Source of the DNA: Spirochaetota bacterium
GTDB taxonomy: Bacteria > Spirochaetota > UBA4802 > UBA5550
Reading direction: 5' to 3'
DNA: 64,000 nucleotides
NCBI GenBank assembly: GCA_016933025.1
Contig: JAFGBT010000039.1
Coordinates: 731-64,730, forward strand
Positions within the stretch are counted from its first letter, which is position 1, and every line of letters starts with the position of its first letter. Positions 6,080 to 60,000 of this stretch are shown here, piece after piece. The notes under the pieces are model-generated. The model worked only from the letters and a program-made list of their open reading frames with translations, had not been told where the DNA came from and made no database searches. Both the position numbers and the translations under genes were made by a program.

Positions 6080-7069
6080 ATGAAAATTCTCGATATCATC
6101 ACGAGGGGGTTCCCCGTATGGGTACTGGCCGCGAGCATCGTCTCTCTGGCGTATCCCCCCTCGTTCACCTGGTTCTCGGGCCGCATGATCACCGTCGGTC
6201 TCGGCATGATCATGCTCGGCATGGGGATTACCCTCACCGTCGAAGATTTCAGGCGGGTCATACGCTTCCCGGGCCGCGTCATCGTCGGCGTCGCCTTCCA
6301 GTACGGGGTGATGCCGGCGCTCGGCTGGACCCTCGCCGCCCTCTACGACCTGCCCGTTCCACTGGCGGTCGGGCTGATCCTGGTGGCCTCCTGTCCCGGC
6401 GGCACCGCCTCGAACGTCATATCCTTCCTGGCCAAGGCCGACGTTCCCCTGTCCGTGACCATGACGAGCGTGTCGACCATGATCGCGATCGGCGCCACTC
6501 CGCTTCTTACATCGATTTATGCCGGGAGCAGGATTGACGTTCCGGCCATGGGGCTTTTTCTTTCGACGGTACAGGTGATCCTGCTGCCGGTGACGGCGGG
6601 CGTCATCATGAACAGGTACCTGCCGCGCGTCACCAGGAAGGTCCTTCCGGTCATGCCGCTGGTGGCGGTCATATTCATCACGCTCATCGTGGCCTCAATT
6701 ATCGGCGCGGGGAGGGATGAAATCCTGAGGTCCGGCTGGCGGCTCATCGCCGCGGTATTCTCGCTTCACGCGGGAGGATTTTTCTTCGGTTACACGGCCG
6801 CATTTCTCATCACGCGCGATGTCATCGCCGCACGAACCATTTCAATCGAGGTGGGGATGCAGAACTCCGGACTCGGCGTCGTTCTCGCGCGGAGCAATTT
6901 TTCCAACCCGGTCACCGCGATACCGAGCGCCATATCGAGCCTTTTTCACTCGCTTATCGCAAGCGTTCTCGCCGCATGGTGGAAGCGCTCTGCGGACAGG
7001 CACAGGGCGGACGCGGCAGAAACGCCACTCTCGGATCACAGCCCGGGTCGGGAAGGAGATATGGCCTGA
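6080..7069 (+). CDS. Bile acid:sodium symporter (BASS/SBF) family transporter.
   Basis: About 9-10 TM helices. Characteristic BASS motifs are present (GLILVASCPGGTASNV, IEVGMQNSGLGVVLA). Confidence 0.7.
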   Translation: MKILDIITRGFPVWVLAASIVSLAYPPSFTWFSGRMITVGLGMIMLGMGITLTVEDFRRVIRFPGRVIVGVAFQYGVMPALGWTLAALYDLPVPLAVGLILVASCPGGTASNVISFLAKADVPLSVTMTSVSTMIAIGATPLLTSIYAGSRIDVPAMGLFLSTVQVILLPVTAGVIMNRYLPRVTRKVLPVMPLVAVIFITLIVASIIGAGRDEILRSGWRLIAAVFSLHAGGFFFGYTAAFLITRDVIAARTISIEVGMQNSGLGVVLARSNFSNPVTAIPSAISSLFHSLIASVLAAWWKRSADRHRADAAETPLSDHSPGREGDMA

Positions 7070-12567: not shown

Positions 12568-12828
12568 CTAGTTCGGATCAATGACCTTGACATTGGCGGC
12601 GGTGGAGCAGCTTGCCGTGCCGGTCACCTTGCAGCCAGCCGCCTCGCATTTCTTGCGCTGGTCGAAGGTATCACTGCCATGGTACTTGCACTGGTCAGCA
12701 GAGCTGTCCGAGCTGCAGAGATAGCACCCGTCGGCCGCGTAAGCGCTCGGCAGCGCCTGGAATGAAAGCATAAAACCGAGGACTGCCCCAACCGCGGCTA
12801 TCGCGGCTAAAATGATAAGTTTCTTCAT
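12568..12828 (-). CDS. Small secreted Cys-rich protein (hypothetical).
   Basis: The start is probably the internal MKKLIILAAIAAVGAVLG... signal peptide, with AYA at the cleavage site. The mature peptide is ~55 aa with seven Cys (DGCYLCSSDSSADQCKYHG...CEAAGCKVTGTASCS). Confidence 0.45.
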   Translation of the reverse strand: MKKLIILAAIAAVGAVLGFMLSFQALPSAYAADGCYLCSSDSSADQCKYHGSDTFDQRKKCEAAGCKVTGTASCSTAANVKVIDPN

Positions 12829-12984
12829 AGGTCCTCCTATTGACGTTTGTACAGGACGGGATTGCGCCGCCCCTTTATCGCGGATTGCTTTTGGCATCGG
12901 CCCTTATAATAGGATAGGGTTCTATCATTGTCAATTATTAATATTGAAATGCGGTAAGGTATTCTTTGGTTACAGGCCTTAAAA

Positions 12985-13001
12985 TACCGATAACTATCGG
13001 A
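12985..13001. repeat. Palindromic motif, copy 1 (tACCGATAACTATCGGa), in the carB upstream region.
   Basis: Inverted repeat CCGATA/TATCGG with a 2-bp spacer. It is one of seven copies in the window. Confidence 0.6.
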
Positions 13002-13158
13002 CTGCCTGACTCTAACCACCTGGTTTTTTATTGGTTTTTAAGTAAAAATTATCATAAAGGCTCAAGTATGGCTGCCGAAGCCCTCACAGTGTCAGGACCC
13101 ATCCATAGCCGGAAAAACTACCGTCCCAATGTTACTCTGACCCCCTTGTTCTCTTCTA

Positions 13159-13172
13159 CCGATAACTATCGG
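13159..13172. repeat. Palindromic motif, copy 2 (CCGATAACTATCGG), in the carB upstream region.
   Basis: Same 14-mer as copy 1, 174 bp downstream. The flanking sequence is partly similar too (ctgccYgactYt). Confidence 0.6.
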
Positions 13173-13274
13173 CACCATTTTACTCTGCCCGACTTTATTC
13201 ATTATGATTGGCCTACTCCCGCCCGCCAATTGAGGTTCATTTAAAAATTAATTGCCGCCCTCATTATTCCATAC

Positions 13275-13391: not shown

Positions 13392-16300
13392 ATGCCAAAA
13401 CGCGACGACATCAACAAGGTACTGATAATCGGTTCGGGCCCCATCATCATCGGCCAGGCCTGCGAATTCGATTATTCAGGCACCCAGGCATGCAAGGCAC
13501 TCAGGAAACTCGGCTATAAGATAATCCTCGTTAACTCAAACCCGGCCACCATCATGACCGACCCCGGCATGGCTGACGTGACGTACATAGAGCCCCTCAA
13601 CAAGGAAACCCTGACTAAAATCATTGAGAAGGAGAGACCGGATGCCCTCCTCCCCAACCTCGGCGGCCAGACCGGCCTGAATCTTTCCTCAGAACTGTTC
13701 AAAGACGGCACGCTCGACCGGTTCGGGGTGAGAATCATCGGCGTGGCTGCGGACGCTATCGAGCGCGGCGAAGACCGGATAGCCTTTAAAGAGACCATGA
13801 ACAGGCTGGGAATCGAAATGCCCCGAAGCAGCCCGGCGTACTCAGTGGAAGAAGCGGAGAAGATTGCGGGCGAGCTCGGCTATCCGGTCGTCATCAGACC
13901 GGCATACACCATGGGCGGAACGGGCGGCGGGCTCGTCTATAACCTCGAGGAGCTCCGCATCGTGGCGGCTCGCGGCCTTTCGGCAAGCATTGTCAGCCAG
14001 ATTCTAATAGAGGAATCGGTTGTCGGATGGGAGGAGCTGGAGCTCGAGGTCGTTCGCGACGCAAAAAACCAGATGATCACCGTGTGCTTTATCGAGAACG
14101 TGGACGCCATGGGTGTCCACACCGGGGACTCCTACTGCACCGCCCCTATGCTCACGATCGACCCGGAACTCCAGAAGAAGCTTCAGAAATATTCGTATGA
14201 TATCGTCGAGGCCATACAGGTAATCGGCGGCACCAACATTCAGTTCGCCCATGATCCGAAGACGGGCCGCATTGTGGTCATAGAGATCAATCCCCGCACA
14301 TCGAGGTCGTCCGCCCTGGCGTCCAAGGCTACGGGTTTCCCAATCGCCATGGTTTCGTCAATGCTCGCCGGAGGCCTCACGCTGGACGAGATCCCGTACT
14401 GGCGCGACGGTACGCTCGACAAATACACGCCCTCGGGCGACTACGTGGTCGTGAAATTCGCGCGGTGGGGCTTTGAAAAATTCGAGGGCGTCAAGGACCT
14501 GCTCGGCACCCAGATGCGCGCCGTGGGCGAGGCCATGAGCATCGGCAAGACGTACAAGGAGGCCTTTCAGAAGGCAATTCGCTCCATGGAAACGGGCCGG
14601 CATGGGCTCGGATTCGCGAAGAACTTCAACGCGCTCCCTCTTGACGAACTGATGCGGATGCTCGCAATCCCTACCAGCGAACGGCAGTTCATCATGTACG
14701 AAGCCATACGCAAGGGCGCCGACATAAACGTGCTGTACGAGCGCACCTACATCAAACCATGGTTCATCCAGCAGATGAAAGAGATGGTGGAGCTTGAAGA
14801 AGAGATGCTGAAATACCGGGGGAAAAAGCTTCCCGATGACCTGCTCACGAAAGCAAAAAAAGACGGCTTCTCCGATAAATACCTCGCGAAGATACTGGAA
14901 ATCCCGGAAGAAAAAGTGCGCAAACAGAGAACCGCGCTCGGCGTAGTCGAGCACTGGGACGCGGTGCCGGTCAGCGGCGTGGAGGACCGGGCATATTACT
15001 ATTCGACCTACAATGGCACGGACACGGTCCCCGTGTCAAAGAAAAAGAAGATCATGGTCCTCGGCGGCGGCCCCAACCGGATCGGCCAGGGGATCGAATT
15101 CGATTATTGCTGTGTCCACGCGGCCTTCGCCATACGTGACGAGGGACTGGAATCGATCATGATCAACTGCAACCCGGAGACCGTTTCCACTGACTACGAC
15201 ACCTCCGACAAGCTCTACTGCGAGCCGCTCACGGCGGAGGACGTCCTCTCGATCTACGAAAAGGAAAAACCTGACGGCGTCATCGTGCAGTTCGGCGGCC
15301 AGACGCCTCTCAACCTGGCCGGTCAGCTCATGAAAGCGGGAGTAAAAATCATCGGGACCTCGCCGGACTCCATTGACCTGGCGGAGGACCGTGACCGGTT
15401 CCGCAAGATGATGAAGAAACTCGGGATACCCGAGCCGGAATCCGGCATGGCCAGCACCATCGAGGAGGCGATAACTATCGCAAACCGGATCGGATACCCC
15501 CTCATGGTCAGACCGAGCTACGTACTGGGCGGCAGGGCCATGCAGGTGATACATTATGAGGACATGCTCAGGCAGTATGTCACCGCGGCCGTCGACGTAT
15601 CCCCGGAGCGCCCGATCCTTATCGATAAGTTCCTGGAAAACGCAATTGAATGCGAGGCGGACGCCATCAGCGACGGCACCGATGTGATCGTACCGTCCGT
15701 GATGGAGCATATCGAGCTGGCGGGCATCCACTCGGGCGACTCGGCCTGCGTGATACCGCCGGTAACCATCCCGGAGAAGCACATCAAGACCATCGAATCC
15801 TACACGAAAAAAATCGCCCTGGAGCTGAAGGTTGTCGGTCTCATGAACATCCAATACGCCATAGCCGGCGACACGGTATACATCCTGGAGGCAAATCCGC
15901 GGGCCTCGCGCACCGTCCCCCTGGTGTCAAAGGTGTGCAGCATCTCCATGGCGCGGATCGCGACGCAGGTGATGCTCGGCAGAAAGCTGAAGGAGCTCGA
16001 TATCGAGAAAAAGCCGGTTAAGCATTTTGGCGTCAAGGAAGCGGTATTCCCTTTCAACATGTTCCCGGAAGTTGACCCGGTGCTCGGACCGGAAATGCGC
16101 TCCACCGGAGAGGTCCTGGGCCTCGCGGATTCATTCGGGCTGGCCTTCGCCAAGGCGGAAGAGTCGGCGAACATGAAGCTCCCGGTCTCGGGGACTGTCC
16201 TCATCACGGTAAATAAAAACGACCGACCCAGGGCGCTCGAAGTCGCGAAGGAATTCAAGAAACTCGGCTTCCATGTCATGACGACTGAAGGCTGCAACCG

Positions 16301-16589
16301 CTACATGGCCGAGAGCGGCCTGGACACCGAGGCGGTGTTTAAAATCTACCAGGGACGGCCGCACATCGTCGACCGCATCAAAAACAGCGAAATACAACTT
16401 ATCGTCAACACCCCGAGCGGGCGCCAGAGCGAATACGACGATTCGTACATTCGCAAAGCGGCGGTGCAATACAAGCTCCCGTATATCACGACCATGGCCG
16501 CGGCCATGGCCACGGCGCGGGGGATCCAGGCGATCATGCAGGGGAAAAGCGACGTCAAGTCGCTTCAAGAGTATCACAAGGGATTATAG
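13392..16589 (+). CDS. carB: Carbamoyl-phosphate synthase large subunit.
   Basis: The start is MPKRDDINKVLIIGSGPIIIGQACEFDYSGTQA, the canonical CarB N-terminus. There are two ATP-grasp halves, an oligomerisation domain and a C-terminal MGS-like domain, about 1065 aa from this start. An AAGAGGTG ribosome-binding site is upstream. The ORF-track start at 13290 adds 34 unlikely residues. Confidence 0.9.
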   Translation: MPKRDDINKVLIIGSGPIIIGQACEFDYSGTQACKALRKLGYKIILVNSNPATIMTDPGMADVTYIEPLNKETLTKIIEKERPDALLPNLGGQTGLNLSSELFKDGTLDRFGVRIIGVAADAIERGEDRIAFKETMNRLGIEMPRSSPAYSVEEAEKIAGELGYPVVIRPAYTMGGTGGGLVYNLEELRIVAARGLSASIVSQILIEESVVGWEELELEVVRDAKNQMITVCFIENVDAMGVHTGDSYCTAPMLTIDPELQKKLQKYSYDIVEAIQVIGGTNIQFAHDPKTGRIVVIEINPRTSRSSALASKATGFPIAMVSSMLAGGLTLDEIPYWRDGTLDKYTPSGDYVVVKFARWGFEKFEGVKDLLGTQMRAVGEAMSIGKTYKEAFQKAIRSMETGRHGLGFAKNFNALPLDELMRMLAIPTSERQFIMYEAIRKGADINVLYERTYIKPWFIQQMKEMVELEEEMLKYRGKKLPDDLLTKAKKDGFSDKYLAKILEIPEEKVRKQRTALGVVEHWDAVPVSGVEDRAYYYSTYNGTDTVPVSKKKKIMVLGGGPNRIGQGIEFDYCCVHAAFAIRDEGLESIMINCNPETVSTDYDTSDKLYCEPLTAEDVLSIYEKEKPDGVIVQFGGQTPLNLAGQLMKAGVKIIGTSPDSIDLAEDRDRFRKMMKKLGIPEPESGMASTIEEAITIANRIGYPLMVRPSYVLGGRAMQVIHYEDMLRQYVTAAVDVSPERPILIDKFLENAIECEADAISDGTDVIVPSVMEHIELAGIHSGDSACVIPPVTIPEKHIKTIESYTKKIALELKVVGLMNIQYAIAGDTVYILEANPRASRTVPLVSKVCSISMARIATQVMLGRKLKELDIEKKPVKHFGVKEAVFPFNMFPEVDPVLGPEMRSTGEVLGLADSFGLAFAKAEESANMKLPVSGTVLITVNKNDRPRALEVAKEFKKLGFHVMTTEGCNRYMAESGLDTEAVFKIYQGRPHIVDRIKNSEIQLIVNTPSGRQSEYDDSYIRKAAVQYKLPYITTMAAAMATARGIQAIMQGKSDVKSLQEYHKGL

Positions 16590-21812: not shown

Positions 21813-22256
21813 TCAAATAGAATAATCGGCAGCCGCCTTCCCTCTGTTTTTATTATATTGTTTTACCAGGTCGTCCAGGGTTGTTCCATCAAGAAATTCA
21901 ACCATTAGTGAACTCATCTCCGCCCATACATTGCGCGTAATGCACCCAGCGTTCCAATCGCATTCCTCCGGCCTGGCCACGCAATCAACAAGACTCAGAT
22001 CTCCCTCGAGCGGTTCAATAATTTCCCGCAGCCTGATCTGCGACGCGGGCCTGCCCAGCATATATCCGCCATGGGCGCCCCTGATGGCAGCCACCAGCCC
22101 GCCGGCTTTCAGGGGAATGATTATCTGGCTCAAATATTTTTCAGATATCCTCTCCGAACGCGCGATCTCTTTTAGAAAGACCGGCCTCCTTTCGTCTCCG
22201 AGTCCCAGCGCGAGCATGAGCCTGAGTCCGTATCTTGATCTTGTTGACAGCTTCAC
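21813..22256 (-). CDS. Rrf2-family transcriptional regulator (CymR/IscR-like). It is probably a cysteine-metabolism repressor.
   Basis: MKLSTRSRYGLRLMLALG is the canonical Rrf2 wHTH N-terminus. Length 147 aa. It lies immediately downstream of cysK on the same strand. Confidence 0.7.
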   Translation of the reverse strand: MKLSTRSRYGLRLMLALGLGDERRPVFLKEIARSERISEKYLSQIIIPLKAGGLVAAIRGAHGGYMLGRPASQIRLREIIEPLEGDLSLVDCVARPEECDWNAGCITRNVWAEMSSLMVEFLDGTTLDDLVKQYNKNRGKAAADYSI

Positions 22257-23283: not shown

Positions 23284-24654
<1,371 letters not shown>

Positions 24655-24739
24655 TTAATGTCAAGGTAAAGTTATAATTTTGCATCTAAAATCAGTAGAT
24701 TTAACAATTTATATTAGAACAGGTTGGGATGATATTATT

Positions 24740-24753
24740 TCGATAGTTATCGG
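24740..24753. repeat. Palindromic motif copy (tCGATAGTTATCGG), reverse orientation, in the metY/msrBA divergent intergenic region.
   Basis: Reverse complement of the CCGATAACTATCG core. Confidence 0.55.
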
Positions 24754-24796: not shown

Positions 24797-24810
24797 CCGA
24801 TAACAATCGG
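24797..24810. repeat. Palindromic motif variant (CCGATAACAATCGG) in the same intergenic region.
   Basis: One mismatch to the 14-mer. It lies 44 bp from the previous copy. Confidence 0.5.
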
Positions 24811-24975: not shown

Positions 24976-26007
24976 ATGAACCGATATTTAACGGCTGCAC
25001 TGGCGGCCATGATACTCTCGACAATTACTTTCTGCACAAACTGCAGAAAAGAAGGATATTCAGACATGAAGTCGAATGATAAACAACACCTATTGAATAA
25101 ACTGACTCCCGAGCAGTATCGGGTTACCTGCGAAAACGGAACCGAACCCCCCTTCAGGAACGAATACTGGGACAATCACCGCCCGGGCATCTATGTCGAT
25201 GTTATATCGGGAGAGCCCCTGTTCAGCTCGCTTGACAAGTTCGATTCCGGGACAGGATGGCCGAGCTTTACCCGCCCGATGGAAAACGACAATATCGTGC
25301 TAAAGGTCGACCGGAGCCTCTTTATGACACGAACCGAGGTTCGGGGCAAAAAAGCCGATTCTCATCTCGGGCATGTATTTAAGGATGGGCCGCCCCCAAC
25401 CGGACTCAGGTACTGCATGAACTCCGCCGCGCTCCGCTTTATACCGGCATCCGAGCTGGAAAAAGAAGGATACGGACAATACGCAAAACTCTTTGCCCCC
25501 CGCGGGCCGGCAACCGTTGTAAAGACAGAAACCGCCACGTTTGCGGCCGGATGCTTCTGGGGCGTCGAGCACCTATTCAAGGGGATCAGGGGCGTCCTGA
25601 AGACCCGGGTCGGATACACCGGCGGCCGCACGGACAATCCCACGTATCGCGACGTCAGCACCGGCACGACCGGGCATGCCGAAGCGGTACAGGTTGAGTA
25701 CGACCCGTCGGTCATTTCGTACCGGGAGCTCCTGGATTACTTCTGGAGGCTTCATGACCCGACACAACTGAACCGGCAGGGCCCGGACATCGGCACGCAA
25801 TACCGAACGGCACTATTCTACCATAACGAGGAACAGCGCACAACAGCCGAGAAATCGAAGGAAGATTTTGACCGATCAGGCGTGTTCCGCACGAAGGCCG
25901 TGACAGAAATCAAGCCGGCGGGAAAATTTTACGACGCGGAGGAGTATCATCAGGATTATTTCGGCAAGAATCAGGGCCGATCATGCCATATACTCAGGGA
26001 CCGGTAA
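24976..26007 (+). CDS. msrAB: Peptide methionine sulfoxide reductase MsrB-MsrA fusion with a lipoprotein-type signal peptide.
   Basis: N-terminal signal peptide with lipobox ([11 protein letters not shown]). The MsrB domain has zinc Cys pairs and the RYCMNSAAL catalytic motif. The MsrA domain carries GCFWG. Confidence 0.85.
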
Positions 26008-31776: not shown

Positions 31777-31922
31777 ATTGTTAATCGTAAATGATTCTTA
31801 TGAAGTTATTTATATAATGGCGGCAGTATCCCGTGAGCAGGCGGCCAGGATGGCCGCCGGAGCCGATAGGACAGGATGTCCTATTTGCGGCGGGGCGAAC
31901 GGGATGCTGCCGCCATTAATAC

Positions 31923-34886
31923 TCATACCCTGTACTCCGCCCTCTCGATGAGCTCAATCTGCATCTCGCGGTTGAGGGTAACGAAATAGGCGTTGTAGCC
32001 CGATATGCGCACGATAAGGTTCCGGTACAGCTCCGGGTGCACCATGGCGTCGCGGAGAACCGCGGAAGAGACGACATTCATCTGCATCTGCATTCCGCCC
32101 AGGCCAAAATAGGTCTTCACATATGAGTGCATGGTGTCGACCATCTTCTCGTGGGTATCGCTCGCGCTCGGAACCACCTTGACGTTAAAGGCGATATTGT
32201 TGTTCATGTGCCGGGGGTTAAGCCGCGCGACGTCACGGATGTTGTCCAGCAGATTTTTCGAGGCGTTCGGCTCCGGCGTGAGGCCGGGTGTGAAGGCCTT
32301 GCCGGTCAGCCGGCCCGAGGGGAGCGCACCGGTCATGTTGCCGAAAATCACGTGGTTCGACATTGACCAGAAACCGGCCGTGTACCGGCCGCCCCGATAG
32401 TTCTTGTGCGCGTAATAGGCATCATGCGCGAATTTCGCCACGCGTCCGGCCATCGCCAGCGCCTCCTCGCTGCCCGAGCCGAATCGGGGCACCCTGCTCA
32501 TCACCAAGGCATGGAGCTCAGGGTAGCCCTGGTAGTTGGCGTCGATCGCCTTTTTAAATTCGGGGAGCGACACCTGCTTCTCGTCGTACACCAGCTTCTT
32601 GACCGCCATGAGCGAATCGGTGATGTCCGCCAGCCCGATGCATGCCGAGCCGGAGCTGTTGTACTTGGCCCCGCCCCGCGTCACGTCGAGGCCCTTCTTC
32701 ATTGGCCCGTCGATGAGCGCCGAGAGGAGCGGCGTGGGTCTGATATAGCCGTGTGCCTTCCCGAGCATGTTGTTCAGTTCAACGGAATTGTCGATAAGGA
32801 ACTGGAACTGCCTCGTGAAGGCGCGGTAGAATTCCTCGAAGGTCCGGAAGCTGCCGGACTCGATCGCGCCGGTCTCCGGGCCGACCTTCCAGTTCATGAG
32901 AGGATGCCTGCCGTTGTTGAGCGCCATCTCCAGCGCGGCCACCATGTTCATCATCATGCAGTTCGTGTGGCCGATGTGCTTGCCGGACAGGGTGGGCTCA
33001 ACGCACCCGGTTGCCGACCAGTTCCTCAGATCCTTTATATCGTACGCGAACTCTTTCAAAGAGGACATGACCGATTTGTCGTTGTGGAGCGACGGCGTTG
33101 CGGTCGTTATCAGGTTCACCTCGCAGAGCCGCCTCAGGTACGCGTCGCTGTTCACGCCGGGGCAGAAGCGGGCGTTGACGTTCGGGTCCCTGATGCTGAG
33201 CATCTCGGTGACCTTGAGGAATAGGTATGTCATGTCGCATACCGCGTCCTTCCCTTCCGGCGTGATACCGCCAAGCGTGATGGCCTGGTCCGACGAGCTG
33301 CCGCCAAAGAGGTAGTTTCCGATATCCGGCACCAGGGGAAGATGATCGGTGCACCGCATGTAGAAACAGCCGACCAGCTCGATAGCCTTCTTAATATACT
33401 CCTCGCGCTTCTTCGCGCTTTTCAATTTCGCCATGTCAGCCGCAAAATAGGGCTGGAACCACTGATCCATCCTTCCCAGGGAGAGGCCGGCGTTGGTGTT
33501 CTCCATGTGAAGACCCACCCATCCGATCCAGGCAGCGTTGACCGCCTCGTCGAGTGTTTCGCAGGGGCCCTCGGGCACACGGTCGCAGATAACGGCAAGC
33601 CTGAGGAGCTCCCCCTTCCTCACCGGGTCGGTCTCGCTCTGAGCCTCCGCGGCCGCCTGCTTCGAAAGGTTTTTCGCGTACGCGGCGAGCCCCTCCAGAC
33701 AGAGGATCATGGCCTCCAGAAGGGTACGCTTGTCCCGTTTCGATGCCGAGGTCTTCGCGATTTCACGGCGGATTTCCCCGATGTAGCCCTTTGTCCCTAT
33801 GCGCAGGAGCTTCGGGAAATCCGCGATCGTATGGGACAGGGCCACGCTCTTCCAGAGGAAGTAGACGGCGAACCGCTCGTCTATCCGCTGGCAGAGGGGA
33901 TTATCGTACTCCTCGCGGACCCACTCGCGGAAATTCCGGTGAGTCCAGTAGGGAAAGACGTCGCGATGAAGGACGCGCTTGGTATCACCAGAAATATTGT
34001 AGGGATTCAGCTCCCGGTCCGGCACGTTGTTGAGCTCGCCCCAGATCATAGTTCCGTGCGCGTCCGGATACAGGATGACGCCGATGTCCTTGGTGGTGGA
34101 GGTGCCGGCGACCAGGTCGCCCTTCCGGATGATCGGCCTGCGGTGTTCCATCATGTATTTATAGGCGCCCGCCTGCCTGAGCTCGGGGGGCCATGGCGTG
34201 CCGTCGGCCCTCTTTTCGAAACCATTCTCCTTGAACCACCGCGTCATCAGAAGCGCGCGCTCCGGGCATATTTCGGGCTTCGTGGTGAAATGCTGGTCGA
34301 GGAACTCCTTCAGCCGCGGAAAATCAGACAAGGAATAGCCCGATAGGTAGGGATCTGAAAGATATTTTACGCCCCGGTCCCTCGCCGGCGCCCTGAGCGC
34401 TCCATGGCGCGCGCTTTTTTCCGCGGGCGCGGGCCCGCTGTCGCCCTTCATCGAATCCGCCTGCTTCTGCCGCTCGTGTTCCTCGATCAGTTTCTTCTGC
34501 ATTCCGAGATGTTTCTTGTAGAGGAGGACTGAAACATAGTAGTTGAACAGGTTCGGGTAGGCGAAGTTGCCCTCGATGCGGAGCTTGCCTTTGGTCAGGA
34601 ACATGACCAGTTCGTTGGGGGGAAGATTGAGCGCTTCCATAACGGCTTTCCCGTCCCTGAAGATAAGGACCGAATCGACCCCTTCGGGTATAGAGCCCAT
34701 GACCGAGACCCTGCCGTCATTGAAGCGGACGGCGGCCATCACGCTCCTGTTCTCGGTACGGATCCCGATGCAAAAATTGGTCCACCCGTCAGCGCTCTTC
34801 AGGTACTGCCGTTTTGAGGGTATCCGGCTGTAAATAGCCGCCATCAAATGGAGCAGTATTTTGACCAGGATGTTCGTGAAATTCAT
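31923..34886 (-). CDS. Glycyl radical enzyme, PFL2 / dehydratase-lyase class, of unknown substrate. It carries an N-terminal SCP2-like extension of ~140 aa.
   Basis: C-terminal glycyl-radical motif RISGYNAYF. Thiyl-radical loop ATGCVEPT (single Cys followed by Glu, as in glycerol dehydratase/CutC/HypD types, not the CC of PFL). Length 987 aa. The N-terminal ~120 aa (…FLTKGKLRIEGNFAYPNLF…) resemble an SCP2 sterol-carrier fold. Confidence 0.85.
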   Translation of the reverse strand: MNFTNILVKILLHLMAAIYSRIPSKRQYLKSADGWTNFCIGIRTENRSVMAAVRFNDGRVSVMGSIPEGVDSVLIFRDGKAVMEALNLPPNELVMFLTKGKLRIEGNFAYPNLFNYYVSVLLYKKHLGMQKKLIEEHERQKQADSMKGDSGPAPAEKSARHGALRAPARDRGVKYLSDPYLSGYSLSDFPRLKEFLDQHFTTKPEICPERALLMTRWFKENGFEKRADGTPWPPELRQAGAYKYMMEHRRPIIRKGDLVAGTSTTKDIGVILYPDAHGTMIWGELNNVPDRELNPYNISGDTKRVLHRDVFPYWTHRNFREWVREEYDNPLCQRIDERFAVYFLWKSVALSHTIADFPKLLRIGTKGYIGEIRREIAKTSASKRDKRTLLEAMILCLEGLAAYAKNLSKQAAAEAQSETDPVRKGELLRLAVICDRVPEGPCETLDEAVNAAWIGWVGLHMENTNAGLSLGRMDQWFQPYFAADMAKLKSAKKREEYIKKAIELVGCFYMRCTDHLPLVPDIGNYLFGGSSSDQAITLGGITPEGKDAVCDMTYLFLKVTEMLSIRDPNVNARFCPGVNSDAYLRRLCEVNLITTATPSLHNDKSVMSSLKEFAYDIKDLRNWSATGCVEPTLSGKHIGHTNCMMMNMVAALEMALNNGRHPLMNWKVGPETGAIESGSFRTFEEFYRAFTRQFQFLIDNSVELNNMLGKAHGYIRPTPLLSALIDGPMKKGLDVTRGGAKYNSSGSACIGLADITDSLMAVKKLVYDEKQVSLPEFKKAIDANYQGYPELHALVMSRVPRFGSGSEEALAMAGRVAKFAHDAYYAHKNYRGGRYTAGFWSMSNHVIFGNMTGALPSGRLTGKAFTPGLTPEPNASKNLLDNIRDVARLNPRHMNNNIAFNVKVVPSASDTHEKMVDTMHSYVKTYFGLGGMQMQMNVVSSAVLRDAMVHPELYRNLIVRISGYNAYFVTLNREMQIELIERAEYRV

Positions 34887-46188: not shown

Positions 46189-48165
46189 TTACAGTTTAAT
46201 CCCCGGAGGATTACCATATGTCTTTTTAACGGCCGCGGCATCTCTGCCAGCAACCTGCCCCGGCGCGGGAACCGCCGCCTGCTTTGCCTCCGGCTGCTTC
46301 CTTAACGGAGAGTCCTGCTTCTGCCGGGACGCGGCGGTAAAATACCCGAGCTCATGCAGCTTCGCAAAAATACGTTCGGCGATCGGGACGGCGCTCGCCG
46401 CGCCGGCAATGCCGTATTCTATCAGGATGGCAGTGGCGACCGCCGTTTCAGGAGGCCCGTCATACGGCGCGTAGCCGACGAACCAGGCGTGCTGTGAGTA
46501 CTTTTCCTGCCTGATTGAACGCGTCTGCGCCGTCCCGGTTTTTCCGGCGACCGGAACTTTTAGATAGCCGAGGCGGCCCGATGTTCCGCTAGTGACGCTG
46601 AGCCGCATCCCCTTCTTGACCGCCTGTAATGTAAGGGGGGAGAGCGGTATCTCCCGGACCTTCTCCCGATGCATGGCCGTGATAACGCGATTGTTATCGT
46701 TGGTGCGTATCTCCTTTACTAGATGGGGGCGGTAGACAATGCCGTTGTTTACCAGCGCCGAGACAAATTCGCACATTCCTATCGGCGTCACGTGCAGGAA
46801 GCCCTGCCCTATCGACATGTTAACGGTGTCACCGTCGAACCAGGGCTGACCAAACACTTTGTATTTCCATTGCCTGGACGGCACAAAGCCGGCCACCTCG
46901 CCCGGGATATCGATGCCCGATTTCTGGTTGAGGCCGAAGTCCTCGGCGTATCTCATCATGATCGTGGGGCCGGTCAGGAGCCCGAGCTGGTAGAAGTAGA
47001 CGCTGCACGACTTGGCGATCGCCCAGTGGAGGTCAACAGTCCCATGGACATCGTAATCGTAAAACACATGGTCACGGTACCCCTTCAGGACGAACTTGCC
47101 CGGACAATAATAGGTCTTATCCGGCGTCGCCTTCTCGGTCTCGAGCGCCGCAACGGCGGTGACGAGCTTGAAGGTCGACGCGGGAGGGTATTTCGACTGG
47201 ATCACCCGATCCAGGAAGGGCCTCTGCTTATCGTTTTGGAGCTTCTTAATGATGGCTGCGTTGTTTTTTGATATAATAAGGTTCGGGTCGAAATCGGGCT
47301 TGCTCAGAAGCGCGATCACCTCGCCGGTTGAGGGCTTCAGGACTATCGCGGCGCCCTTCATGCCCTTCATTGCGTCATATATGATCTTCTGAATATTGTA
47401 ATCAATGGTGAGGACCAGGTTGTTCCCGGCCACCGGACGCTGCCCGATCTCCTCCCCCTCCGTTCTCTGTCTGACATCGACAATCCGGCGGACGTACCCG
47501 TCCCGCCCGCGCAGGAGCGGATCGTACTGCTTCTCGATACCCGATTTCCCGATCTTCTGATAGTGCTTGTAGCCTTCGGATTTCAGGCGCCTGTATTCGG
47601 CATGGCTTATGCTCCCGACGTAGCCGACAGCGTGGGCGAACATCTCGCTGAAATTATAGACCCGTACCGAAGCGTCCTCCCAGTCGATATTGGGGAACTT
47701 TTTCGGATGGGAGGCGATTTTCACGATGGTGTCGAATTCAACGTCCTCTTTTAACACCACCCGCTCCCACGGGTTGCCGCTATTGATCTCATCGATTATC
47801 TCGTCTTTATCGATTTTCAGAAGACGCGACAGAAGGTCGAGGATCTCGTATAATTTTTTTTTTGATTTGAATTTTGCCGGAATGGTCGTCAGGTTAAAAG
47901 ACGCCCGGTTTGAGACGAGGACGACGTTCTTTTCGCCCTCCTTGAAGTTGCGGTCGTATACATCGCCCCGCGCCGCAGGGATGGGGATATTGCTCTCCAT
48001 ATTAATCCGCGCCCTTGCCTGGTACTCTTTCCCCTGTATCACCTGAAGGTTGAGCAGTTGAAGTATCAGGGCGGCGAATGCCACGGCGGCGACCGCCATG
48101 TAGAAATACATCCTGACCCGGAAGGCTTCCTGCAGCTTTGCCCGCAAAGACGATTGCATCAGCAT
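46189..48165 (-). CDS. mrdA: Penicillin-binding protein 2 (elongasome transpeptidase).
   Basis: An N-terminal TM helix, a PBP dimerisation domain and the transpeptidase motifs STFK, SGT-like and KTGTAQ. The Ala/Pro/Gln-rich C-terminal tail is unusual. The start is placed to abut the mreD stop. Confidence 0.85.
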   Translation of the reverse strand: MLMQSSLRAKLQEAFRVRMYFYMAVAAVAFAALILQLLNLQVIQGKEYQARARINMESNIPIPAARGDVYDRNFKEGEKNVVLVSNRASFNLTTIPAKFKSKKKLYEILDLLSRLLKIDKDEIIDEINSGNPWERVVLKEDVEFDTIVKIASHPKKFPNIDWEDASVRVYNFSEMFAHAVGYVGSISHAEYRRLKSEGYKHYQKIGKSGIEKQYDPLLRGRDGYVRRIVDVRQRTEGEEIGQRPVAGNNLVLTIDYNIQKIIYDAMKGMKGAAIVLKPSTGEVIALLSKPDFDPNLIISKNNAAIIKKLQNDKQRPFLDRVIQSKYPPASTFKLVTAVAALETEKATPDKTYYCPGKFVLKGYRDHVFYDYDVHGTVDLHWAIAKSCSVYFYQLGLLTGPTIMMRYAEDFGLNQKSGIDIPGEVAGFVPSRQWKYKVFGQPWFDGDTVNMSIGQGFLHVTPIGMCEFVSALVNNGIVYRPHLVKEIRTNDNNRVITAMHREKVREIPLSPLTLQAVKKGMRLSVTSGTSGRLGYLKVPVAGKTGTAQTRSIRQEKYSQHAWFVGYAPYDGPPETAVATAILIEYGIAGAASAVPIAERIFAKLHELGYFTAASRQKQDSPLRKQPEAKQAAVPAPGQVAGRDAAAVKKTYGNPPGIKL

Positions 48166-54594: not shown

Positions 54595-54818
54595 TGCTAC
54601 CTCTTGGAACACATTGATATGGAGTTGTATACGGGACGGCGAAAATTTAGCGCTCCCCGAGATACTTGAAAGGCGGGAATTATCCCGCCTTGAAGCTCTA
54701 TTTTTCAAATGATATTGATTATGTCAATCAATATACACCGATATTGGCGAAAAAAAATCCAAAACTGGGCTCATTAATTTAAAAATTTTTTACGCATGCC
54801 AACTCCGTCCGTTTATGT

Positions 54819-55292
54819 ATGATAGGAAGAAAATTCCGGGGGGATATGATGGAAACAACGCTTAATGTTCACGAAAAAGTTCTTGAAAAAATTGAGTCAG
54901 CTGCAGCTTCCGCAGGAATGGGCAGATCAACGTTGATAATCAGGCTGATTAAAATGGCAATGGATGATATTCCAAACCCCGCCCGCATGGGCTCCAACGT
55001 CAAATATCAAAAAAGGTGCAGTCCTGATGAATGGCGCCCGGTCCACCTGCAGTTGAGAATTGATGATTATGAGTATTTCCAGGATCTGAGGAGGTTGCGG
55101 AAGATGTCGATTTCATTTATTCTGGCATATTCTGTTGAAAAATTCCTTCCACAGCTTTTAGAAAAAAAAGATACCGATAACTATCGGTATCAAAATTATA
55201 TTGTCATCAGAGAAATCATTGAAAATATCATATCATGGAGATTCATATGGGGATACCCACCCAATCTTGAAAAACATCTCCAATTTTCATAG
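54819..55292 (+). CDS. Hypothetical protein with an N-terminal ribbon-helix-helix-like (CopG/Arc-like) segment. A 22-bp perfect palindrome lies inside its coding sequence.
   Basis: TLNVHEKVLEKIESAAASAGMGRSTLIIRLIKMAM has the beta-strand, helix, loop, helix pattern of an RHH DNA-binding domain. The palindrome GATACCGATAACTATCGGTATC at 55170-55191 encodes DTDNYRYQ. Confidence 0.4.
   Translation: MIGRKFRGDMMETTLNVHEKVLEKIESAAASAGMGRSTLIIRLIKMAMDDIPNPARMGSNVKYQKRCSPDEWRPVHLQLRIDDYEYFQDLRRLRKMSISFILAYSVEKFLPQLLEKKDTDNYRYQNYIVIREIIENIISWRFIWGYPPNLEKHLQFS
55170..55191. repeat. Longest copy of the palindromic motif (GATACCGATAACTATCGGTATC, 10-bp arms), inside a coding sequence.
   Basis: A perfect inverted repeat around the non-palindromic AC centre. 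Confidence 0.65.
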
Positions 55293-55300
55293 CTCCCCAC

Positions 55301-55843
55301 TCACTTTTTCCCATCATCATAGAGAATGGTAATTTTATCCAGATAGAGGTGTATAACATCGCCATGCGCGTCCCAGTCGAGCTTAAAATTCTTCAGCTTG
55401 CCCCTGACCGCGAAGAGCGCGCCGGAGCGCCACCACCCCTTCATGGGAGCATAGTTCTTATCGGCCATCTGCTTAAGGGATTCCGGGTCGATCTCGCCGT
55501 GAATGTAGAGCCAACGGCCGCTGAGAAAAATGCAGACAACGTCCTTATCGTATAGTCTTTCGGGCGAGGAGAGCGTGAAATCGCTGCCCGTGGTGATCTC
55601 TTTTCCCAGGAGCCTGATAAGCAGTCGCCTGAGCTTGCCTTCATGGTAATGCTTGCTCCCGAACAGCCCCAGGCGCCACTTTTCATACTGATTCTGGATC
55701 AGAAAAAAGTTCCGCAGCCCCTCAGGGACATCTTCCGCGCTCAATTCAGCGCCGGTCGTCAACGGCGTTTCGAAGAAGGCGGGATAACCGATAACTATCG
55801 CCCCGCAAAAAAGACCTATCATGCAGCATCGCCTTAATCTCAT
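55301..55843 (-). CDS. Secreted hypothetical protein.
   Basis: The probable start is the internal MRLRRCCMIGLFCGAIVIG signal peptide. The upstream part of the ORF-track frame is R/G-rich and overlaps the DUF3467 gene, so I treat it as non-coding. A palindromic motif copy (55788-55801) encodes AIVIGYP. Confidence 0.4.
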   Translation of the reverse strand: MRLRRCCMIGLFCGAIVIGYPAFFETPLTTGAELSAEDVPEGLRNFFLIQNQYEKWRLGLFGSKHYHEGKLRRLLIRLLGKEITTGSDFTLSSPERLYDKDVVCIFLSGRWLYIHGEIDPESLKQMADKNYAPMKGWWRSGALFAVRGKLKNFKLDWDAHGDVIHLYLDKITILYDDGKK

Positions 55844-56335: not shown

Positions 56336-57088
56336 TCACCGTGTATATCTTTTCAATAATTGCACAACCCGCACCTTTTTGGCCTTCTCAGCGTAATCAA
56401 GAGGAGTCATGCCTTTCTCGTCCTTGATGGTGATGTCCGCGCCGTTCTTGAGCAACAGCTCAATTATTCTGATATTGCCGACAAAAACGGCTCTGTGAAG
56501 CGGGGTCTGTTTTTCCTTGTTTTGAATATTTACGCTGGCTCCTTTTTGCAATAAATAGCTTGTTTCCTGAAAAAGTTCACCAGAGATTGTTTTAAAAATT
56601 GGAGTATCTCCATAATCAAAATCTACAGAATCAATACATACATCGAGATCTTCAATTACAAATCTGATTATATTAAATAACCTAGAATAAACAGCAGTAA
56701 ATAACAATTGGCTATCACAACTTCTATTAACGTAAACACCTTGACTAATCAAATATAAAATTATTTTTATATTACCATTATAAATAGCATCGCTTAAACA
56801 ATGTCTATTTTCATTTTCTGTATCAATCCTTGCTCCATTTATAATAAGCAATTTAACGATTTCAAGGCTGCTACTTTTTATAGCACCATTTAAAGGATAT
56901 TCGTCATGTGATAAAAATTGCTTTTTATAATTAACATCAACCCCTTGATTAATCAATAATAATACTCTTTGATACTCTCCTTTCATAGATGCCTGGTACA
57001 ACTGATCACCCAAATCTTCAACTATATTTGTTGTTGCACAACCAGACGAGAAAATCAATAATATTAAAAATATAATTATAATTCTCAT
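56336..57088 (-). CDS. Ankyrin-repeat lipoprotein. It is the probable cognate immunity protein of the upstream RHS toxin.
   Basis: Signal peptide with lipobox (LIFSSGCATT). At least 4-5 ANK repeats (…TPLHRAVFVGNIRIIELLLKNGADITIKDEKGMTPLDYA…). The start ATG overlaps the RHS stop as ATGA. GC content is very low compared with the rest of the window. Confidence 0.7.
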   Translation of the reverse strand: MRIIIIFLILLIFSSGCATTNIVEDLGDQLYQASMKGEYQRVLLLINQGVDVNYKKQFLSHDEYPLNGAIKSSSLEIVKLLIINGARIDTENENRHCLSDAIYNGNIKIILYLISQGVYVNRSCDSQLLFTAVYSRLFNIIRFVIEDLDVCIDSVDFDYGDTPIFKTISGELFQETSYLLQKGASVNIQNKEKQTPLHRAVFVGNIRIIELLLKNGADITIKDEKGMTPLDYAEKAKKVRVVQLLKRYTR

Positions 57089-60000
57089 TTATCTTTTGAC
57101 CTATTATATTCTTCTCTTACTTTACTTCTGTCATAAGGTTTTACACCCGGTATCAACTTACCATTAATATCATACATTTTCTGATTTTCAAATATCTGAT
57201 CTGGTAATGCTAAAAATGATTTACCAAGTTTAGCATTCTTGTCATCCTCATACGCCCAGGCGATAACCTCGGTACATACCATTTTATTATCGCCATCCTT
57301 AAACTTCCCTAAATTTCTCTTCCAGTTTTTACTATTGGTGAGCAAACTCCATGCGCCGCCGACCGCTCCAAGAAGCCCCTTCATGTCATATTCAAAATTG
57401 TCTTCTTTCATTGCCTTATCTAGCTTATTGATAGCATTCTTTCCTTCCTCTACCGTACCAACCCTGAAAAATCTATACTGGTCTATAGTTTCATATTTAT
57501 TATATTTCGTCCATTTTTCTTTTTTTGGATCCCATTCCATGCTTCCTTCCTTGCTAATAATCCTTTCCACGATTTTATCACCCTGGATATCAGTAACCAT
57601 CACTCCGACGACTTGGCCTTTATACTTAAACGACTGTTGCACCATTGCTGAATGGCCGAGCCTGCAACTGGTCTGCGAAAGTATCCTGTTTGATACTTCC
57701 GCGCCAAGCTTCGCTACAACACCCGCCTTTTCAGCCATTATCTGATCTTTAGGGCTTTCGGCCCGCATCATAAAATCCCCGATCCTCGCCTCCTCCATGC
57801 CTATCTCAACATGCCCGGTCGGGTCCTTGTACATTATCGGGTTGTTGGAGCAGTACGCGTACCGGTTCCAGGCCTGTGTGTTCGTCTCGCTCGATATAAC
57901 GGTGTCGGCCGTCACAAAACGCGCGATGTCCGGGTCGTAGTGGCGCGCGTTATAGAAGTAGTACCCGGTCTCCCGGTCCAGCTCCTGGCTGTTGTACTTG
58001 GGCGCGTGGCCCCGGTCGCCCTCGGTGATCCATGTCCCGCCGAAGGGGAGGTACTCGTTCTGCGACACGATCATCCCCGCATGGTCGAGCGTGACGGTGA
58101 CGCTGTCGACCTGGTCCGTCAGGTAGTGGAACGGCCTCCCGCCGGGAGCGACCGCGGCAATCCTCACGCCGTTCAGGTATATATGGCTGACCCGCATAGA
58201 GGACCCTGGTATTGGACGGCCGTCAATATCTTTTTGTGTCTCCAGGGTGAGGTACATGGAGGGCGATATCGTCTCCACGCTCCGGGCCTCGCTGCCGGCC
58301 GGCCTCGCGGAGACCTTGCGCACCCTGAACCCCTGTTCGTCGTAATCGTACCGGCCGAGCTCCTCGCCGGTGTCCGGGTCGGTCGCCAGGCGGATGCGGT
58401 TCAGGGAATCGTACGCCATCCGCTTTGCCATGTTTTTCTCCCGGTCGCGCTGGTATGTCATGTTCCCGGCCGCGTCGTATTCCATCTCGTAGCGTCCGGG
58501 GAGCCGCGCCGTGCCTATGGCGGTCGCTGCATGGTTGGCGTACGTGTACTCCCACCGGTCGTCGACCGCGCCGGTCTCACTATCATACACCGTCCTGGCC
58601 GTGAGATTGCCGCCGGGCGAATACTCATACCCGATTTCAAATTTCTTTGATATAACGGCGCCTGTATCCGGCGCTTCTGCAATCCCCGGATTTAAATCCG
58701 GGGATTGCAGAAGCGTTTTATTATAATCACCCCGCGCGTGCGCCAGCCGGTTCAGGCCGTCATACTCGTAATCGTAGCGAATGAGCCCCTCGCACGCCCC
58801 TTCGGCGTCGACGTTCGGGGCGTTTTCGATGGCGGCGATGCTGTCGTCCGGCCTGAATTCGTACGCGACGTCCTGCACCTTCCACTCCTCTCCATTGTGG
58901 CGCGCCACGGTCAGAAGGCGCTCAAGCCTCCCTCTGCGATCATACGTATAAGCGGTAACGGCATTGTTGCCGCGGCTCATTTCTATCATGCGCCCGAACT
59001 CGTTGTAGCGGACATTCTTCACGATATCCAGCGTCTCGCCGCCATTGTCGGCCGTGATTGATGTCACGCCCATGGCGCAGCGGCCGTACGAGACGGCCAT
59101 GCCTTTTCTCGCGTGCGGCTCTCGCGGGTATTCGATCAATATTTTTCTTCCTAAAAGATCATATTGATATCGAGTTATATATCTCCCCTCTCCCCGTGGG
59201 AGAGTGGTCGGGGGTGAGGGTTTCATAACTCGCGTCTCCTCCTTCACCCTCCCGATTTTATCATAGCAGAATTTCTTCGCCGACACCGGATCCTCGATGT
59301 ACGCCACCCTCCCGAGTGCGTTCGCGCATCCCCTGTACGAATCGTACACGTACCTGACCGTCCCTTCGTCTCCCGGAAGTCGCTTCACGGTCATCCGGCC
59401 CAGCCGGTCGTATTCAAAGGCCGTGACGCGGCCGAGTGCGTCGGTCACGGCGGCAGGCTCGCCGAAGGCGTTGTAATCGAGGCGCGCGTATCCGAGGTCC
59501 GGGTCGCTCGATTCCGTTACCCGGCCGAAGGCGTCGTAGCGCCATGCCGCCACGTTGCTGCCGGATGTGTCCTTCACGCCGGGCGCGAACAGCGACGCGT
59601 CCACTTCCCGTAGCGAGGGGCTTAAGCCCCTCGCTACGGGAAGATCAAATTTCTTCACCCTGTTGCCCGCGATATCATACACGAACCCGATCATCGCGCT
59701 CACAAACGCGCCGGCCCCTGAGCCTGTGCCGAGCGAAGCCGAGGCATCGCCGATGCCCGAATCCCCGGCATAGAGAACGAGCCCCCGTCCGTTCCTGACG
59801 ACCCGCTTGGACCTTTCGAGGCTGTTGGTTTCAATAACTTCCCATGGATCATGGTAGACAAACGACGTCGACGCCTCCGGCTCGCCGTCATACGCCGGGG
59901 GGAGGGTGATTTTTGACGGGCGTCCGGACCCGTCATACTCTGTCACGGTCGGGTTCTTCTCACGGAGGTGGGGGACGAACCGCCCGATCTCGTCATCGGC

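Follow-up and report, generated by a model that had tools for sequence, protein, structure and literature searches.

A near-exact palindromic box dispersed through an uncultured Spirochaetota clade and a candidate tandem ribbon-helix-helix protein as its reader

We analysed a stretch of 64,000 nucleotides from a Spirochaetota bacterium (assembly GCA_016933025.1, contig JAFGBT010000039.1, positions 731 to 64,730 of the forward strand), in the following called the window, in which a short palindrome, box A, recurs. The window has 54.6% GC and a uniformly negative GC skew without a skew switch. Copies of box A lie upstream of carB (13393-16589), in the intergenic region between the metY-cysK-rrf2 operon (24615-21813, minus strand) and the divergent msrBA genes (24976-26007), and inside a gene (54846..55292, plus strand) with a predicted product of 148 aa, a single-chain tandem ribbon-helix-helix (RHH) protein of what we call the 'p157' family. 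This protein is the candidate binder of box A.

The 12-mer core CGATAACTATCG was found in exact form at 12988(+), 13160(+), 15469(+), 24741(-), 55175(+) and 55789(+) when the 64-kb window was scanned, and with one mismatch (CGATAACAATCG) at 24798(+) and 46688(-). These eight matches with at most one mismatch compare to 0.43 expected matches, and none of 100 shuffled sequences reached eight. The over-representation noted in the initial annotation was confirmed, although its list of seven copies had overlooked the eighth, in the PBP2 gene at 46688. The full 14-mer CCGATAACTATCGG is restricted to 12987, 13159 and 55174, and 13 of its 14 positions are matched at 24740-24753 and 55788-55801. Together with its flanks the full box A reads wACCGATAACTATCGG(w), with an asymmetric, invariant AC in the centre. 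When two mismatches were allowed, 24 rows were obtained versus 5.8 expected; six of these were exact copies read again on the opposite strand and eight were the copies with at most one mismatch. Since this removed most of the excess, we concluded that the box A family consists of near-exact copies. The palindrome is a genuine, non-chance feature, with a density of about one box per 8-10 kb.

On the carB side, the first copy (taCCGATAACTATCGGa, 12987..13000, plus strand) lies 91 bp upstream of the start codon of a divergent open reading frame (ORF) of 109 aa (12568-12897, minus strand) and about 400 bp upstream of carB. The second copy (taCCGATAACTATCGGc, 13159..13172, plus strand) is located in the carB upstream region, and the distance between the two was 172 bp rather than the previously given 174 bp. 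A second motif, box B (GGGGTCAGAGTAA), is present on either side of this copy: the sole exact box B of the window (GGGGTCAGAGTAAC, 13131..13144, minus strand) is 15 nt away, and a variant (GGGCAGAGTAAA, 13180..13191, minus strand) is 8 nt away on the opposite side. The metY/msrBA intergenic region harbors one copy (taCCGATAACTATCGA, 24740..24753, minus strand) that precedes the -35 hexamer of metY by about 80 bp and, 57 bp away and inverted relative to it, a variant (CCGATAACAATCGG, 24797..24810, plus strand). The best copy is a palindrome of 22 bp (GATACCGATAACTATCGGTATC, 55170..55191, plus strand), perfect except for the AC centre; the whole palindrome is read as D-T-D-N-Y-R-Y in the linker of the tandem-RHH gene, and the 10-bp arms described for it earlier were confirmed. 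A further copy (aaCCGATAACTATCGC, 55788..55801, plus strand) follows 614 bp downstream; it falls within the 5' portion of the following, minus-strand ORF and is translated there as A-I-V-I-G. Two copies are less convincing. The core inside carB (GCGATAACTATCGC, 15468..15481, plus strand) reads A-I-T-I-A, lacks the usual wAC...G flanks and is probably weak or accidental; there was no counterpart at the same place in carB of the related locus L137 (loci retrieved from other genomes carry an L and a number). The one-mismatch core in the PBP2 gene (46688..46699, minus strand) is a doubtful member.

To follow the box beyond the window, one genome per species was scanned for the 16-mer TACCGATAACTATCGG, which gave at least 118 tiles. 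At least 76 of these came from at least about 24 species of Spirochaetota/"Leptospirales" known as metagenome-assembled genomes (MAGs), with many tiles per genome, for example in JAFGJX01, CAZYBU01, CAZZHU01, CAYRGX01, CAWHAA01, JBGSUQ01 and CALEUQ01. Genomes of non-spirochaete phyla had one tile each among the matches listed. Spirochaete tiles contained 0.78 extra exact cores per tile, the others 0.02. The suggestion that the palindrome is a short dispersed repeat family was borne out, since the 16-mer recurs many times within the genomes of many related MAG species. Copies outside the spirochaetes (L145, L154, L189, L181/L163, L221/L225; Bacteroidota and other phyla) are often inside longer hairpins, such as CCCGAATACCGATAACTATCGGTATTCGGG, and the palindrome extended beyond the 16-mer in 16 of 42 non-spirochaete matches among those listed. 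Around the 16-mer, L181 from a gammaproteobacterium and L163 from Flavobacterium share about 33 identical nucleotides. We rejected cross-phylum conservation and took these copies as unrelated hairpin elements, which were picked up because the search pattern is itself palindromic. A scan of viral contigs for the 14-mer gave single, chance-like matches only.

As had been stated before, we found no operator that the box matches, and the literature search gave no result for its sequence. Rfam had no family at the boxes of the window or of eight array loci, nor one for box B in the same regions. We therefore rejected the idea that the long carB leader holds a known riboswitch or other known RNA family.

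Alignment of 162 sites oriented on the AC centre gave T-A-C-C-G-A-T-A-A-C-T-A-T-C-G-G, with the central A in 161 and the central C in all 162; the flanks beyond -3/+13 were random. The DNA outside long open frames, 14% of the total, contained 67% of 172 boxes. With rough gene calls, we counted 1.76 boxes per kb in divergent, 1.02 in tandem and 1.78 in convergent intergenic regions, and 0.09 in coding sequence. Per kb, intergenic DNA contains about 10-20 times as many boxes as coding DNA. The median distance from a box to the downstream start codon was 188 bp. The genes adjoining boxes are functionally diverse and include purL/AIRS, serine hydroxymethyltransferase (SHMT), RecA and DnaE.

The distance of 188 bp, neighbours of this kind and the box positions conserved upstream of carB, metY and dnaE (see below) would also be compatible with an operator of a conventional global transcription factor outside the RHH family, for instance an unlinked dimeric helix-turn-helix protein acting on carB, purL, glyA, metY, dnaE and recA. 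We regard this as quite unlikely. Convergent regions were as rich in boxes as divergent ones, which makes a purely transcriptional role unlikely, and arrays with up to five copies occur. The invariant asymmetric centre does not suit a symmetric dimer, and no regulator family recurs beside the boxes. Known global regulators also have sites unlike these, which number about one per 8-10 kb and include hardly any degenerate variants. A cognate TetR protein encoded next to the boxes was considered and rejected, as the three TetR neighbours belong to different subfamilies.

The initial annotation had also compared box A to chromosome-organisation sites. Such a role, as for parS/ParB, the Noc-binding site (NBS), the SlmA-binding site (SBS) or matS/MatP, would agree with the size of the palindrome, its high sequence specificity and the presence of some copies in coding sequence; MatP is itself an RHH protein. 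The check for orientation bias gave a weak signal that points the same way. The AAC strand of the box was biased to the C-rich strand of the local 8-kb tile (81 versus 43 sites, p = 8e-4; 49 versus 30 clusters, p = 0.04; L114-L230 and the window), a bias that could reflect replication or transcription polarity. The likeness is loose, however, and we consider an organising site of this type very doubtful. On one contig of 4.8 Mb the matches, among those listed, were at 0.15, 0.70, 2.32 and 4.71 Mb, and this spread shows no clustering. In the window neither a GC-skew switch nor a ParA/ParB gene was seen. Boxes are strongly biased to intergenic DNA, and their tandem arrays, often phased, adjoin promoters; neither this bias nor tandem arrays are features of the Noc-NBS, SlmA-SBS or MatP-matS systems. 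parS (consensus tGTTNCACGTGAAACa) has few copies near the origin and adjacent parAB genes, whereas box A has another sequence and is spread over the 4.8-Mb contig. matS sites are 23 single palindromes of 13 bp confined to one region, the Ter macrodomain. MatP-matS resembles the system studied here in combining an RHH-type candidate reader with a near-exact palindrome scattered over the chromosome, but box A forms arrays with an intergenic bias, no regional restriction was visible in the sample, and the protein architecture is unrelated. DNA uptake sequences (DUS/USS) occur about once per kb in coding and non-coding DNA alike and often as inverted terminator pairs, which differs from the density, the intergenic bias and the mostly direct arrays of box A.

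Spacing between neighbouring boxes peaked at 21-22 and 42-43 bp, and then at about 63, 84, 105 and 125 bp. The orientation was the same for 47 of 62 neighbouring boxes and opposite for 15; alternating orientation was confined to some arrays, for example L125 and L170. Arrays of four to five boxes were present in L134, L224, L135 and L125. The array of L224 is located 100-200 bp upstream of a tRNA gene, and in L135 a unit of 43 bp is repeated four times in tandem. Box A is interleaved with box B, for which the related loci gave the consensus GGGGTCAGAG(T/C)AA(A/C). Within 100 bp of box A this motif was enriched 30-90 times. It usually lies 7-11 nt to one side of box A, and the order box B, 7-11 nt, box A was seen in L135, L146, L117, L129 and L200. 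Inverted pairs of box B would form hairpins of 13 bp (loci with box B: window, L135, L146, L117, L200, L240, L257). We rejected sigma-28, sigma-54 and extracytoplasmic function (ECF) sigma factor promoter readings of box A and box B, because by inspection the spacings did not fit.

Features such as these bring in the main rival to recognition by the RHH family, a repeat like the repetitive extragenic palindromes (REP) and bacterial interspersed mosaic elements (BIME) of enterobacteria and pseudomonads. Box A and box B would then be short hairpin repeats that spread or persist as mosaic clusters and are recognised by host factors or a transposase, and the RHH gene would merely carry a copy. This explanation is possible but rather unlikely in our view. 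REP/BIME elements are, like box A, short high-copy palindromes in mosaics with a second motif and common to related species. The copies of box A are numerous, near-exact and strongly extragenic, and they occur in all types of intergenic regions, including convergent ones; REP/BIME units are imperfect palindromes found almost exclusively outside genes. The inverted box B pairs, the tandem arrays including the unit of L135 and the folding of the 22-mer GATACCGATAACTATCGGTATC at -10.9 kcal/mol also agree with a repeat. In contrast, BIME units alternate in orientation, whereas box A copies are mostly direct and phased at 21 bp. The box A unit is shorter (16-22 bp) and has a strictly asymmetric centre, and the stem of the 14-mer is weak, with just 5 bp and -3.9 kcal/mol. 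A transposase of the HUH/Y1 type as associated with REP elements (RAYT) was not found among the annotated neighbours of boxes, no genome-wide search having been made. The sole recurrent gene associated with the boxes was that of the RHH protein, which has no HUH motif. Two further differences, the conservation of box positions and the box within a protein-coding gene, are described in the following.

Boxes were found at orthologous positions in related genomes, where absence would have spoken against a conserved role according to the initial annotation. On the carB side they are present upstream in the window, L172, L131 and L137. L172 has full synteny with the window, and its box lies just upstream of the homologue of the 109-aa ORF and 340 bp upstream of carB; in L131 and L137 one extra gene separates the boxes from carB. 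The box upstream of metY is kept in L005 and L141, its flanks are not, and when the three species were aligned, the box and the promoter block were the sole conserved parts of otherwise diverged sequence. Three genomes (L130, L187, L179) have boxes 60-150 bp upstream of dnaE, and L136 and L222 have them upstream of one same gene of 330 aa. Over all tiles, both members of 10 of 57 inter-genome orthologue pairs had a box within 450 bp upstream, versus 3.2 expected. The tiles were selected solely on the 16-mer, yet they repeatedly contained the same genes as the window. Since the positions are conserved amid diverged flanks, the boxes appear to be maintained by selection rather than placed by random insertion. 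That the exact 16-mer and its positions are kept across species with orthologous proteins of 46-85% identity also sets box A apart from REP/BIME elements.

The metY locus offered a regulator of its own. The last gene of the metY-cysK-rrf2 operon (21813-22256) encodes a CymR-like Rrf2 regulator with a CX6CX5C motif, whose closest relatives are from "Spirochaetes bacterium" MAGs. An exact search with the Rrf2 product gave no identical protein, and a single 5-kb Logan contig was the one place where it was encoded. Box A could be the operator of this adjacent regulator and control both metY-cysK-rrf2 and msrBA, as two boxes lie between metY and msrBA, rrf2 closes the metY operon and the synteny is conserved. 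This reading was essentially refuted. In the window, L005, L141 and L002, it is another conserved block, AATTcCTACTAAA..CTAT..ATTACT, that lies across the metY promoter, and the relatives L002-L004 lack the box but possess the regulator together with the complete operon. Genome-wide, boxes lie beside genes unrelated to this operon. In its general form, the block reads AATT(A/C)CTA(C/G)TAA..CTAT..ATT(A/G)CT and covers the metY promoter in the four species (window about 24615-24665, minus strand; L005 about 6190-6240; L141; L002 about 240-300). It resembles the CymR operator (AATTCCTAT), and it is likely the operator of the Rrf2 regulator.

The tandem-RHH gene provided a link between box A and a protein; the initial annotation had noted neither this link nor the companion box B at 13131-13144. 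By tblastn, homologues of the 54846-55292 ORF with 28%-56% identity were found in 12 of the 76 motif-selected tiles, and in each of them the box was at the same codons (..TDNYRY..). As these tiles had been selected on the motif, relatives were also retrieved by protein similarity. The protein-selected locus L232 has an exact box inside the RHH gene. In 62 distinct protein-selected metagenome genes, the codons of the box were ACC in 44 of 46, GAT in 62 of 62 and AAC in 61 of 62, followed by TAT in 47 of 47 or AAT in 15 of 15. Elsewhere in the same genes AAC made up 34% of the Asn codons. The codon after the box started with C in 57 of 62 genes (background 19%), whatever the residue was (R, Q, L, H or P). 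Because the codons are fixed and the C is present regardless of the residue, the DNA string CGATAACWATC is conserved rather than the peptide. This pattern of codon use shows that selection acts on the box DNA itself within the RHH gene, which is hard to reconcile with a REP/BIME-like element. The AAT variant of 15 of the 62 genes is the same variant as at 24798 and 46688.

The RHH family comprises 658 clusters at 50% identity, and the gene is multi-copy in several genomes, with five copies in CALEUQ01, where contigs break inside the gene, and three in JBBFLA01. Paralogues share the ribosome-binding site (RBS) and the ORF with 93% identity and diverge thereafter, and their neighbours are unrelated housekeeping genes. 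The pattern suggests paralogy or gene conversion and not a transposon, and a mobile element with terminal repeats around the gene was rejected. A phage or plasmid origin was rejected as well: relatives of the RHH protein were not found on plasmids, phages or viral contigs, and the viral contigs had single 14-mer matches only. CALEUQ01 also contains 3' fragments of the gene. Intergenic boxes as remnants of RHH pseudogenes were nevertheless dismissed on account of the random flanks of the 162 boxes. Some RHH genes, such as those of L291, L244, L247 and L252, have an extra box within their promoter or close to it. The RHH genes also share a promoter-like upstream block, AAAATTTTT(C/T)A, about 20 nt, TTCGTATA, located about 60-110 bp upstream in L236-L315 and at 54780-54830 in the window, which suggests that the family has a promoter type or regulator of its own. 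In L271 and L273 (4944-4956) a comparable second box is located 617 bp downstream of the RHH-internal box, so that the distance is 614-618 bp in these loci and the window; in L271 it is again in a T-D-N-N-R frame, here within an unrelated membrane-protein ORF, at the C-terminal tail.

For the RHH protein, Pfam and NCBIfam gave weak matches only, to RHH_1 (E 0.5), CopG (E 0.2) and antitoxin RHH models (E 0.002-0.05). The AlphaFold2 (AF2) model has two beta-alpha-alpha units in one chain (E2-9/H10-23/H27-40 and E63-70/H72-85/H89-106) and a C-terminal beta-hairpin, and the product of 54846-55292 is predicted to be a single-chain tandem RHH protein. The confidence of the model is lowest at residues 110-116, which coincide exactly with the part encoded by the box. 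The best PDB matches found by Foldseek were chains E/F/G of the F-plasmid relaxosome, which we infer to be TraY, followed by AvtR, VirC2 and single-chain Arc. Across the family, the residues predicted to face DNA on the beta-strands (T, N and H/R on one, H and R on the second) vary hardly at all.

We favour, tentatively, the view that box A is the recognition or docking site of the RHH family and nucleates phased protein trains, a view that we would place somewhat short of probable. Box A would be a site for sequence-specific protein docking, held by selection across the uncultured Spirochaetota clade, and its most likely readers would be the multi-copy single-chain tandem RHH proteins of about 150 aa, one of them encoded at 54846-55292. 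Each polypeptide is expected to form an RHH pseudo-dimer. Because the two beta-strands of such a pseudo-dimer differ, it could read an asymmetric centre, which would match the conserved AC of the box. A distance of 21 bp corresponds to two helical turns, and this phasing, with the interleaved box B, would allow the proteins to bind one after another along the same side of the helix as a 'train'. Such a train may be likened to TraY on F oriT or to the oligomers of ParR, omega or AvtR. The trains would stand 60-350 bp upstream of promoters (carB, metY/msrBA, dnaE and a tRNA gene) and also between convergent genes. As the sites lie upstream of rather than over promoters and occur between convergent genes as well, we infer that binding would have an architectural or modulatory role (bending, looping or insulation), not that of a classical repressor overlapping a promoter. 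Every gene of the RHH family keeps a single box in the linker, a structurally tolerant part of the protein, and this box presumably serves feedback or self-marking.

Several observations weigh against recognition by the RHH family. The protein-box link rests on the location of the box within the gene, which may serve another purpose, and box B has no assigned reader. The AF2 model is of moderate quality, with a predicted local distance difference test (pLDDT) score of 72 and a predicted template modelling score (pTM) of 0.59, and the fold matches are weak (E 3e-3, template modelling (TM) score 0.45-0.6). Covariation of the box variant (TAT or AAT) with the residues of the beta-strands was looked for within the family and nothing clear was found. 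Near-exact copies with scarcely any excess at two mismatches fit repeat elements better than regulator sites, and the equal box density of convergent and divergent intergenic regions makes a purely transcriptional role unlikely. Finally, most related loci were picked for containing the motif, and the gene calls there are crude ORF heuristics.

The nearest known counterparts of box A are REP/BIME elements and RHH-iteron systems, from each of which it differs in tested features. F TraY is an RHH pseudo-dimer made of one chain; three molecules bind adjacent subsites as a train, and TraY bends DNA (PMC12117103). The predicted one-chain pseudo-dimer encoded at 54846-55292 resembles TraY at oriT, AvtR of a lipothrixvirus and VirC2 at overdrive, and a train as formed by TraY would fit the phased arrays. 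In contrast to these systems there is no relaxase, type IV secretion system, plasmid or virus context here; the box sites are many and chromosomal instead of one locus, and the RHH protein has an extra C-terminal beta-hairpin domain and is encoded by a multi-copy gene that holds its own site. The RHH centromere binders (ParR/parC, ParG, omega) bind cooperatively to helically phased tandem repeats, and arrays of four to five boxes at 21 bp resemble parC-type iterons; in the present case there is no adjacent ParA/ParM gene, the arrays are chromosomal, numerous and dispersed, and the protein is single-chain. Compared to REP/BIME elements, one copy of the box is kept by selection within the multi-copy RHH gene.

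Two other features of the window are recorded here. Rfam gave a match to TwoAYGGAY RNA at 31798-31933(+) with 45 bits (gathering score 43), between genes for a glycyl-radical enzyme and its activase, both on the opposite strand. The GC content is low (0.44) at 54-58 kb, and this stretch is followed by a 2302-aa RHS/YD-repeat-like ORF (57085-63993, minus strand) with an ankyrin-repeat-like ORF (56336-57088) downstream of it, both labels being taken from the translations. The two ORFs look like a toxin-immunity island adjoining the RHH gene.

In summary, box A is a family of dispersed sites that is specific to this clade and tied to a tandem-RHH gene family without annotation; we could match it to no operator or partition site, and we found the pairing of box and RHH gene described nowhere. 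A more far-reaching and speculative idea, which we consider possible but on balance unlikely, is an undescribed genome-wide system. RHH proteins would mark their own genes with one box and jointly read phased arrays of box A and box B at orthologous intergenic positions, as a new kind of nucleoid-associated or insulator-like system, or a selfish gene-plus-site module would have had its sites domesticated as upstream architectural elements. Bacteria have few dispersed, near-exact sequences for protein recognition (REP, DUS, parS, matS, NBS, SBS), and every one found has led to a mechanism by which genomes are maintained, organised or made mobile. In the present case, a box of 16 bp is fixed across many uncultured spirochaete species and stays in place upstream of carB, metY, dnaE and a tRNA gene. 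If the RHH protein does not read the box, the selection on the intragenic copy still calls for an explanation. If it does, the two would form a testable protein-site pair for a lineage without genetics and a natural case of an asymmetric RHH pseudo-dimer reading the asymmetric centre of a palindrome, and the box would be a marker for recognising these genomes in metagenomes.

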